Shown one piece after another: positions 27,001-30,000 of a stretch of DNA of 64,000 nucleotides. The stretch comes from Saccostrea echinata (Eukaryota). The stretch spans positions 15,252,001 to 15,316,000 of the forward strand of contig NW_026889761.1 of the NCBI RefSeq assembly GCF_033153115.1, in the 5' to 3' direction. The notes beneath the pieces are model-generated. The model was not told the DNA's origin. It was given only the letters and a program-made list of their open reading frames with translations, and did no database searches. A program made the translations under genes and the position numbers. Numbering within the stretch: the first letter of the stretch is position 1; each line of letters opens with the position of its first letter.

Positions 27001-30000
27001 TTTTCTTGCCAAAGGTCTCTTTAGCACTTGATACCAATATGTCACTTATTCTTTCGACAACGTTATCTATAAAATCTGATGTGACTTTTCCTGCTATAGT
27101 GTTCCTGATTTCATGTTCTAATAGTGTGATAGCATTTATTTTGTCTTTTATAAAGTAATGAAATGTTTCTTGCTTCTCAGGAATCCAATTTTTAGCAATC
27201 TCTTGTGTTTGTTTTTGTGGGTTATTTAATTTAGAAGCGTGTTCTTTTTCAAAGGCTAGTAAAACCTCCACAGGATTATGAACATCAGATAATAGGGTAG
27301 AGAATGTTAATATTCTAAAATCAGAAACATATCTTAAAAATTCAAAATTTGCAATACAATAGTCTACAACACTAGTTTGTTTACATGTACATTCACCATT
27401 TGGGTCACCCTTGGATCTACCATTGAGAATAAAAATATTACAATGTTTGCAAATATCAATAAGTTTTTTCCCATACTGGTTTACAATCATATCTCTTGAA
27501 TTTCTTACCATTGAAAAACCATATTTTTCAAGACATCTTATATCGATTTGATCAACAGCCCAATTAAAATCAGTATCAGACACACGATCATGGGTTTGAA
27601 CAAAAGGTTCATCACAATCATTAAATTCTTTCAGATTTGAGACTCTACTGTTAAAGTCACCAAGTAAGCAAATACATTTATTCTCTGTAGATAGATTAAA
27701 AATTTCATTTTCAATCTCTTCAAATATTTCACTAGATGAAAATCTGGAGTTTACAGGTGGTATATAGACTGTACCTATTAATAAATGATCATCGATCCCA
27801 AATGTTTTACCTTCTATTCGGACCCAAAGTACATTGTCACATTCATTATTAATAATATTACAGGTTTTAGCAATTGAATTTCTAATATACACAACTATTC
27901 CACCAGATTTCCGAAATGACAAATTTGTTCTATGCTTACAAAATGCACTAAAATTAGGAATGTCGATTATGTCAGCTTTATCTGTTCTTGTTTCTGTAAG
28001 GCACACTATATCATATTTATTTATAAAATCAAGAAAATCAGGAGATTGGAGTTTTGAATTTAACCCACATACATTAATGGATATCAATCTTACTCTAGAT
28101 GCGTCTTCTGGTTTGAGAGAGTTACTTGAAAAGTTTTTAATTTCATTTTCTATTATTTGTTGTTGCTCTCCGTGGTTTACCTACATCGGAACGTTATCGG
28201 AACCTGGATCAGCCACAAATCTACCTGCTGGTGGAAAGATTTGTTTACCTTCTACGAAAAGTTTGTCCACAATCATCACAGCCTTCTTTCCAAGTTTTTT
28301 TGCTTTTTTGTAGTGAGGGTATAGGACTCTCCTGCGCTCGTTAATTTCCTTGGGGAATTGCTCATTCACTCCAAATGCTTTTCCCTCTAGGGTTGATGGG
28401 GCGGCCTTTCTTATTTTTTCTCTTTCTTTATGCAGCACAAACTTTGCGACGATTGGTCTGTGTTTATCCGTTAATCTCTTCCCCATTCGGTGTACCCTAT
28501 GGAACTGTGGAGCTTCTGTGATATTCATTTCTGAGCTTATGAACTCTTTCAGTACCTCCTCTGTGTTTTCGTCTTGTGTCTCCGGTATACCACTGAATAT
28601 GAGATTGTCTCTCATAGATCTAGTTTGTAGATCTAAATGGCGTTCGTTCAAATCCTCGAATTTATGCCTCACTATTTCTAATTCATTCAAGATAACTTCA
28701 TTTTCATTTCTTATGTTACTTACAGATTTTTTCATTTCTTTAACTTCCCTTGTTTGGTCATCGTATTGTTTACTGATATGTGTCACACACTCCTCTACAC
28801 CGTTAACCTTGACCTTCATCTCTTTTAACTCTGTGTTGACATTTACGGCATTTCGTTCCAGTTCATTGAGTCTCTTTTCAATGTGGTCTAATTTGTTTAG
28901 CTTAGTTGATACTTGTTCTAATTTATTCGACATAACTTTCAAAGTCTCAAGAATATCAACATGCTGATACTGCTGTTGCTGTTGTTGAGGGTTTGGTATT
29001 GGTGATAAATACCCAGCAAATTGACTTTGTGGCCCCGGAGGCCCATAAGGAACGAATTGGTTTCCTTGAAAATTATTTCCTTGACAACTGCTCTGAAAGT
29101 TTACAGAAGGCGAGGGTGCATCTGATCATAGGACAAGTATAATTATACCAATTATTCATAATAAGAAGGACATACTGTGTTCCCAACAATAAGCAAAGCT
29201 CAACAGATCATCATCATTTAAAGTATTTAAGTGTTATACTCACTGTTTTTGATTTTCCTTCATGGCATATGGTGTCAACGTTCAGGGGAGTTAACTTGAA
29301 AGAGAGAAATTGTATTTTTGTTATAATTCTACAATTAACAACTTTTCCATATAAGTTGAATTCTAAATTATTATAATAATTGTTTGATATCAGAATCCAA
29401 ATTTATTATTTTATAAATTGTTATGCCCCAAAAGAGCATTCACAGGGACCCTATATACTTTTGTACATCACATGTACATGACTATAATGTTAGCTTTGTA
29501 TATAAGGCAAAGAAAAAAATAAATTAATATGTATCATAGTTTAAGACATTATGCAATAAACATAAGACTTTCACTAGAATTTTCATTGTGTGTTGACCTT
29601 CTACCAAATACATGTACCTTTTCTTTTTTCCTTAGTTCTGCTTCTTTCTCTTTCCATTTCTTCTCTTGAGCCTCCAACTCTGAAAGTTCAGCTTTTACAG
29701 TTGTTTCACTGTTCTGCATTTAGAAACCATGAGTAATCAAAGTTTAAAAAGAACACTTTCTGTAAGTGAGGCAAAGTCTCATATTTATCGATGAAATAAT
29801 TAATAAGATGTTTTAATTTCATTCAACATTCTAATGTTCAATGTACATAAATGGAAAATCTGCAACTAAAGCCATACTTGAGTAGTAGGCATCTCTAGAT
29901 GCATCATTTCTGCAAATCTGGTGCAGGCCGCGATCAAATAGTTAGCGTTATATAAGAGAGGACCTGCTTCAAGACCTATAGATCAGAAGCAGAATCTGGA

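Follow-up and report, generated by a model that had tools for sequence, protein, structure and literature searches.

An in-frame UAG conserved between ORF1 and ORF2 of RTEX retrotransposons suggests programmed readthrough

Introduction

How does a retrotransposon make its enzyme when the enzyme's reading frame has no start codon? The question is raised by a long interspersed nuclear element (LINE) on the minus strand of a 64,000-nucleotide stretch of the Saccostrea echinata genome (assembly GCF_033153115.1, contig NW_026889761.1, positions 15,252,001 to 15,316,000; hereafter the window). Its open reading frame (ORF) 1 ends at a single UAG, ORF2 continues in the same frame, and no AUG precedes the endonuclease (EN) at the head of ORF2. 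A model's reading of the window from its letters alone (the sequence-only reading) had proposed gag-pol-like readthrough of the UAG or initiation at a non-AUG codon. Here we report that the junction recurs throughout the RTEX clade, and that programmed UAG readthrough probably yields the ORF1 protein (ORF1p) together with a rare fusion of ORF1p, EN and reverse transcriptase (RT).

The routes to LINE ORF2 that reviews describe are reinitiation in L1, UAAUG coupling in SART1 and 2A peptides (PMC5972666, PMC3894237, PMC10760644, PMC5009743); the accessible text on Zorro3 states that this element requires its AUG (PMC1965478). The main text of PMC3894237 lists stop-start coupling, internal ribosome entry site ideas and 2A, and the word 'readthrough' occurs in it 0 times.

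Results

One frame, one stop and no start codon

ORF1 of the window copy terminates with CCG ATG TAG (stop 28183-28181), beyond which its frame continues without interruption for 1186 codons. The 31 codons after the stop run without interruption into the endonuclease, and the codon at 28087-28085 is TTG rather than a methionine codon. The catalytic GDFN motif lies at residue 174 of the open frame and the first methionine at residue 224; counted from the TTG, this methionine (ATG 27511-27509) is the one that the sequence-only reading had placed at about residue 193. All the positions given in that reading are correct. It overlooked a truncation: the window copy lacks the first 59 of 371 ORF1 codons and the 5' untranslated region (UTR). 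The copy stops matching other copies at 29119, and the others carry a 5' UTR and a 371-residue ORF1. The flanks of the window copy show no target-site duplication. The copy is probably a witness of the family design, and is unlikely to be a source copy.

The element is an RTEX LINE with an L1-type ORF1

By sequence comparison, the element is an RTEX (RTE-X) LINE with an L1-type ORF1. The assignment comes from a comparison of the RT by eye with alignment rows of the PMC10294476 supplement. There, by eye, the window RT has about 70% identity to the row of RTEX-10_CGi and is far less like the Proto2 rows, and Proto2 was rejected as the clade. APE, RT, a CCHC motif, a microsatellite tail and a length of about 4.9 kb are common to the window element and the RTEX clade, of which RTEX-10_CGi (Repbase) is an example. 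In an RT tree of 48 rows, the elements with the TAG junction form one clade of 37 rows (support 99/96), whose members are 38-69% identical to the window RT.

The window ORF1 matches human L1 ORF1p (2ykp) at profile level with E 1.3e-6. Its predicted structure has a pLDDT of 92.5 and matches the L1 ORF1p fold in Foldseek (E 8e-9, TMq 0.60). The Pfam family Transposase_22 does not recognise the window ORF1 and matched 1 of 16 relatives. ORF2 of the element encodes APE and RT, and a full ORF1 stands ahead of ORF2 in the relatives. The window copy and most complete relatives end in AATAAA and 4-7 nt repeats; a 3' end of short tandem repeats instead of poly(A) is a trait of RTEX. A full ORF1 sets RTEX apart from RTE/BovB (PMC3905857, accessible text).

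Named homologues come from Mytilus, Ruditapes and Patella, and the accessible text of PMC10294476 describes the RTEX clade as expanded in bivalves. Five to seven Mytilus gene models with ORF1 and EN were not used as evidence for a fusion, because gene models skip stops via invented introns. Four database relatives (P0062, P0063, P0065 and P0067) are single ORFs with 300-850 low-complexity residues before the endonuclease.

The junction recurs across the genome

Searches of the S. echinata genome and the stretches fetched from it gave 200 loci, 164 of them with an endonuclease start and 128 after removal of duplicates. Grouped at 75% identity, these form 37 clusters; once six that come from other LINE clades (30 loci) are set aside, 98 RTEX loci in 31 clusters remain. 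The first in-frame stop above the endonuclease is TAG in 89 of the 98 loci, 7-43 codons away, and the junction is present in 30 of the 31 clusters. The ORF1 profile lies in exactly the frame closed by the TAG in 23 clusters and is in frame across other damage in five; two were judged from the ORF1 tail.

In five of the nine exceptional loci, the spacer carries an insertion, frameshift or nonsense codon and the TAG signal persists upstream (L028, L081, L191, L193, L196). One locus is truncated (L077), two have the sense codons TAT (L072) and AAG (L079) in place of a TAG present in their siblings, and the last is a damaged single-copy cluster (L154). Sense codons at the stop and frame-breaking indels, which the sequence-only reading had named as signs against its proposal, were thus found, but each time in a single damaged copy, and most of these copies have intact siblings.

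Because two of the search seeds extended across the junction, the searches could have been biased towards elements with both ORFs in frame; the control was a search with the endonuclease only, which gave 150 matches. TAG-G is present in 12 of the 20 newly fetched loci, some of them in families with a different ORF1 subtype. The remaining eight comprise three damaged siblings of one TAG-G family (the junction deleted in frame in L268; a frameshift or nonsense codon in L272 and L273), two damaged or truncated siblings of another family, two loci without ORF1 upstream, and one with TGG (L259). The loci of the other ORF1 subtype (L261-L263, L265, L269 and L271) match the ORF1 profile weakly and keep TAG-G and the signal behind it. 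This suggests that the junction predates some of the changes in ORF1.

The stop codon that ends ORF2 served as a control. Among 22 complete ORF2s of the clade, it is TAG in 10, TAA in 8 and TGA in 4, with TAG-G in 2 of 22 (hand count). Other LINE clades of the genome (24 loci viewed) mostly have overlapping frames or AUG starts, e.g. TAA-AAATG. In one abundant family of another clade (L101-L130, L176 and L178), which we take to be I/Nimb-like, the ORF1 stop abuts the ORF2 AUG or comes close to overlapping it in the TAA-AAATG manner, and this family likely uses stop-start coupling. In two further LINEs of other clades (L170, L177), an in-frame TGA/TAG pair or a TAG-G interrupts the sequence ahead of ORF2, by damage or design.

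The junction is found in other organisms

A scan with the endonuclease only gave 47 metagenome loci and 7 genome loci, the latter from metagenome-assembled genomes (MAGs) and GTDB. Thirty-four foreign loci have an endonuclease start and an upstream stop, which is TAG in 27 and another stop in 7. The ORF1 profile lies upstream in 20; in 16 it is in the frame that this stop closes, and the stop is TAG in 16/16. The other four (L202, L203, L223, L231) have frameshifts or extra stops and keep the TAG-G signal. The 25 foreign junctions used for counts below are those 16 and nine TAG junctions added by hand, a set in part chosen for its TAG. Excluded were L211 (flank) and L241 (bacterial-type exonuclease). 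In addition, two Solen grandis RTE-X consensus heads in the accessible part of the PMC10294476 library, viewed by eye, have TAG-G in frame with EN.

Among the GTDB genomes there is one real relative (L248, a host-derived contig in a MAG), and the six other matches are unrelated and exonuclease-like. No relatives were found among viral contigs. RTEX elements occur in bacterial symbiont MAGs (L248), and three proteins (P0017, P0044 and P0064) are labelled bacterial reverse transcriptases; RTEX in symbiont MAGs is probably host contamination.

A nucleotide signal lies behind the stop

To describe the sequence behind the stop, we took one intact-looking copy per family, giving 30 representatives with a median EN identity of 30% (two from one cluster, none from that of L154). 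The consensus is TAG GRN NRY SNN GRR. Position +1 is G in 29 of the 30, +2 a purine in 28, +5 a purine in 25, +6 a pyrimidine in 27, +7 G or C in 26 and +10 G in 28, and positions +11 to +14 are mostly purine. Nothing comparable is conserved upstream of the stop in these representatives. Position +6 is a third codon position, and its pyrimidine is kept under ten or more different amino acids, indicating that the constraint acts on the RNA. In the foreign junctions, +6 is a pyrimidine in 21/25 and +10 is G in 19/25, and +1 is G in 17, C in 7 and T in 1.

The type III readthrough context has GGV, GUA or GAU after UAG. The window has UAG GUA, 15/30 representatives match exactly, and 29/30 have UAG-G. 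In that context the stop is followed by about 8 nt rich in purines, among them conserved bases, as in Moloney murine leukaemia virus (MoMLV); the RTEX junctions have this stretch in degenerate form. One foreign subgroup (L210, L212, L217, L218, L226, L228, L233) has CGG, CAG or CAA after TAG, which resemble type I/II contexts, and mostly keeps the purine run at +10.

Three other motifs at the junction were rejected. ATG TAG as a start-stop element and AG/GT as a splice donor are not kept in other families; a Kozak-like ACC-ANG-G in the +1 frame is limited to a few families and would take translation out of frame.

The spacer is open and avoids AUG

An in-frame AUG is present in 1/55 spacers and in 14/55 length-matched ORF1 tails (4/1386 versus 20/1285 codons, p 0.0006). 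AUGs of the +1 frame are present in 38/55 spacers. In 21/30 families of this genome, the spacer has no in-frame ATG, CTG, GTG, TTG or ACG. An ORF2 AUG at or near the stop, as in L1 and SART1, is absent: none precedes EN in the window or in 54/55 spacers. The first methionine lies inside the endonuclease in nearly all families, and at endonuclease position 2-3 in L071, L210 and L216. The off-frames of the spacer contain one stop per 11 codons and stay open in 33/110 cases. In-frame tandem duplications are seen inside the spacers of L083, L255 and L220, as a translated linker would predict.

In line with what the sequence-only reading had named as support for its proposal, the clade as a whole shows an in-frame TAG-G, open in-frame spacers of varied length and almost no in-frame AUG.

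A stem may follow the stop in some families

RNA structure was assessed as nested folds and duplexes. A universal stable hairpin was rejected, the fold z-scores being scattered around zero. The arm at +5..+17 pairs better with the downstream 100 nt of its own family than with those of other families (z -3.5, p 0.0003), and among 29 sliding windows only those over this arm stand out. In three related families the arm deviates from the purine consensus, and a GC-rich partner that matches the altered arm lies near +47..+58. TCTCT[CT] occurs at +56..+67 in 7/30 representatives of this genome, the window's group of mostly related families, with spacers of 48 to 129 nt. A stem about 7-10 nt past the stop is plausible in a subset of families from these pairings; this is the position of stems in other readthrough signals (PMC3159437, accessible text).

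Readthrough compared with its rivals

Comparison of the copies indicates that the junction is clade-wide, of the recoding type and not a private mutation. Programmed UAG readthrough is its probable meaning, because it accounts for an invariant frame with one fixed stop, for the 3' signal and for the missing start. The proposal of the sequence-only reading is therefore supported, by comparative sequence only, and a fusion and an AUG-free restart both fit the sequence.

Several observations weigh against readthrough. Because the families share ancestry, counts taken over them lack independence. Single copies have TAT, AAG or TGG at the junction, a junction deletion or spacer frameshifts, and L202 and L203 are frameshifted inside the spacer with no intact sibling seen. 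An ATG in the spacer, which the sequence-only reading had taken as a sign against itself, is nearly absent except in one foreign family (L207), which has in-frame AUGs within a 130-codon spacer. Position +1 is C or T in 8/25 foreign junctions. At -6.6 kcal/mol (z +0.86), the stem of the window is a weak one, and averaged over families the fold z comes close to zero. When the arm's target is compared with its synonymous recodings, the Stouffer z is 3.4 over 30 families and falls to 1.9 once six close kin are removed (12 control windows span -2.5 to 1.2). Finally, human L1 makes the ORF2 protein (ORF2p) separately and, as Alisch et al. (2006) reportedly found, tolerates loss of its ORF2 AUG, an AUG-free LINE route without fusion that also favours the first rival.

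That rival, the main one although unlikely, is AUG-independent termination-reinitiation: ORF1p would be released at the UAG, and an unrecycled ribosome, positioned or held by the 3' signal, would resume in frame to make a separate ORF2p without an initiator methionine. An 80S ribosome that simply resumed would likewise preserve the frame, and, in the accessible text of the sources, L1 ORF2 uses an unconventional termination-reinitiation (PMC5972666) and SART1 coupling depends on downstream structure (PMC10760644). However, known cases need no particular stop, and here TAG is fixed while the ends of ORF2 are mixed. Moreover, the out-of-frame AUGs of 38/55 spacers would divert scanning subunits, no usable in-frame near-cognate start exists in 21/30 families, and the signal fits a known readthrough class.

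For the two rivals that act on the transcript, we used contigs of the stretch. Five runs hold it; their RNA nature is a guess, and the contigs, which may hold DNA, were used only for what they bridge. Contigs from the runs X1, X2 and X4 (two studies) read straight across the TAG, unjoined and without an alternative letter, a weak check on splicing and editing.

Splicing, with TAG/G as a 3' splice site, would join an upstream AUG to ORF2 and use the purine tract as an exonic enhancer; we consider it very improbable. TAG is the sole stop that fits YAG/G, and G at +1 fits the general acceptor consensus, but the 16 nt upstream contain no pyrimidine tract (pyrimidines 0.41, T 0.16), and a competing AG lies within 14 nt in 30/55 junctions. 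The bridging contigs are unjoined at the TAG, although contigs drop rare forms. In addition, no genomic copy joined at TAG/G was noticed among the examined loci, where such copies would be expected if the RNA that makes ORF2 were copied in cis.

Even less probable is A-to-I editing, which would turn UAG into UIG (Trp) in some transcripts and so encode the fusion. UAG is the favoured ADAR triplet, and TGG stands at the junction in L259 and possibly in the damaged L154. However, edited RNAs copied in cis would accumulate as TGG copies, and 89/98 loci keep TAG; TAT and AAG, the remaining sense codons at this site, do not arise from TAG by A-to-G substitution. The bridging contigs list no other letter at 28182, and the window fold has no duplex over the stop.

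Two neighbouring ORFs have a one-in-three chance of lying in the same frame, but a shared frame by chance, or a private nonsense mutation in one long ORF, is refuted by the same TAG and signal in 30/31 clusters and in foreign contigs and by the small share of open off-frames in the spacers.

The window copy and its surroundings

The coordinates of the window copy are given in Table 1. The LINE lies in an intron of Cdc37, which was identified by a match with E 5e-18 for the exon at 23559-23738. Contigs covering the exon at 29240-29297 have loose ends that fit an exon starting at 24110 (by eye). The intron would be about 0.5 kb if the LINE copy were subtracted, and spliced Cdc37 contigs skip the LINE. 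The element's AATAAA could serve as a premature polyadenylation site inside the intron.

Table 1 Features of the window copy and its host intron, in window coordinates
Feature	Position	Strand	Basis or remark
ORF1, L1 ORF1p type (coiled coil, RNA recognition motif, C-terminal domain), 5'-truncated	28184..29119	-	first 59 codons and 5' UTR missing
ORF1 TAG stop, candidate readthrough codon	28181..28183	-	conserved throughout the clade
Nucleotide signal +1..+14 past the stop: G1, R2, R5, Y6, S7, G10, purines to +14	28167..28180	-	column counts, 30 family representatives and 25 foreign junctions
Open spacer, 31 codons, stop to first endonuclease strand	28088..28180	-	no in-frame ATG, CTG, GTG, TTG or ACG; one out-of-frame ATG
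Possible weak RNA stem, 5' arm (+10..+15)	28166..28171	-	minimum free energy (MFE) structure, z +0.86 to +1.0, alone not significant
Same possible stem, 3' arm (+60..+65)	28116..28121	-	MFE structure
APE endonuclease domain	27644..28081	-	Pfam PF03372 (Exo_endo_phos), E 7e-8, open-frame residues 34-179
First in-frame ATG of ORF2, 3' of GDFN	27509..27511	-	codon reading
Reverse transcriptase domain	25571..26347	-	Pfam PF00078 (RVT_1), E 7e-40, residues 612-870
ORF2 frame, 1186 codons, C-terminal CCHC-type motif, terminal TGA (24622-24620)	24620..28180	-	sequence reading
3' end of the element, AATAAA then short GTTCAA repeats	24512..24530	-	sequence reading
Cdc37 host intron, ends approximate, LINE copy in sense orientation	24111..29243	-	Cdc37 match and spliced contigs

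Discussion

We propose that ribosomes would start at the ORF1 AUG on full-length RTEX RNA and that most would terminate at the UAG and release ORF1p. A few may decode the UAG via a near-cognate tRNA, aided by the 3' signal and, in some families, by a stem about 7-10 nt downstream. These ribosomes would cross an unstructured spacer into EN-RT and produce the ORF1p-EN-RT fusion at a low ratio. As the L1-type coiled coil suggests, the fusion could enter ORF1p trimers and hold the enzyme to the RNA that encodes it, in the manner of Gag-Pol. The frame, the identity of the stop, the nucleotide signal, the avoidance of AUG and their conservation across the clade are observed; readthrough itself, its rate, the inserted amino acid, the role of the stem and co-assembly are what we infer from them. 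We also lean, with some hesitation, towards a broader view in which the whole RTEX clade with an L1-type ORF1 independently evolved a gammaretrovirus-like UAG readthrough, EN-RT is made only as a fusion to trimeric ORF1p, and free ORF2p is selected against.

One of the closest known systems is gammaretrovirus gag-pol (Beier-Grimm type III), which likewise has a structural gene, a single UAG and a polymerase gene in one frame. In the accessible text of PMC13517186, G1, G2, G5, U6, C7 and A8 of the MoMLV spacer matter, and the stem begins at G9. The MoMLV sequence UAG GGR NGU CAG and the RTEX signal have in common G1, R2, R5, Y6 and a G-run from +9/+10. In contrast to gammaretroviruses, RTEX elements are retrotransposons without long terminal repeats (non-LTR) and have no protease to process a fusion; their signal is more degenerate and its G-run begins one base later. 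As to downstream structure, nested folds and duplexes indicate a simple stem in a subset of RTEX families; the gammaretroviral element has an H-type pseudoknot starting at G9. Coat-protein readthrough in luteoviruses and poleroviruses uses AAA-UAG-GUA (PMC3159437, accessible text). The window also has UAG GUA, and A stands at -1 in 16/30 families, but the codon before the stop in the window is AUG, not AAA, and those are plant viruses with distal elements.

Among LINEs, human L1 and SART1 resemble RTEX in their bicistronic RNA, low ORF2 output and L1-type ORF1p fold. According to the accessible text of PMC5972666 they have an ORF2 AUG, whereas RTEX spacers avoid one. Group 3 LINEs of Paramecium have ORF1 and ORF2 in one frame, as RTEX does, and readthrough of their ORF1 stop was proposed from consensus sequences (PMC5405496); they are a ciliate clade with a variant genetic code, and the accessible text states neither a signal nor the identity of the stop. 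A 2A-like motif is another known recoding route in non-LTR elements, and DVExNPGP motifs of this kind occur at LINE ORF starts in L180 (a long ORF on the minus strand) and in a published S. grandis RTE-X consensus head.

The main text of PMC10294476 contains 'readthrough' 0 times and ORF1 once. A literature search, with Repbase Reports and subscription papers outside its scope, found no paper on RTEX readthrough, RTEX ORF2 translation or the signal.

The translation of LINE ORF2 is a standing open question, and RTEX, an active animal clade of large size whose UAG is fixed and followed by a nucleotide signal, makes it testable. If the fusion is real, annotated RTEX ORF2s begin at arbitrary internal codons, and such copies should not count as broken. 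Readthrough, if true, would supply dozens of natural variants of the type III signal, perhaps working with little or no downstream structure. It would also change the picture of the LINE ribonucleoprotein, in which the enzyme would be tethered to the ORF1p trimer, and would represent convergence on the retroviral Gag-Pol strategy: the logic of Gag-Pol, minus the protease, in a non-LTR retrotransposon.
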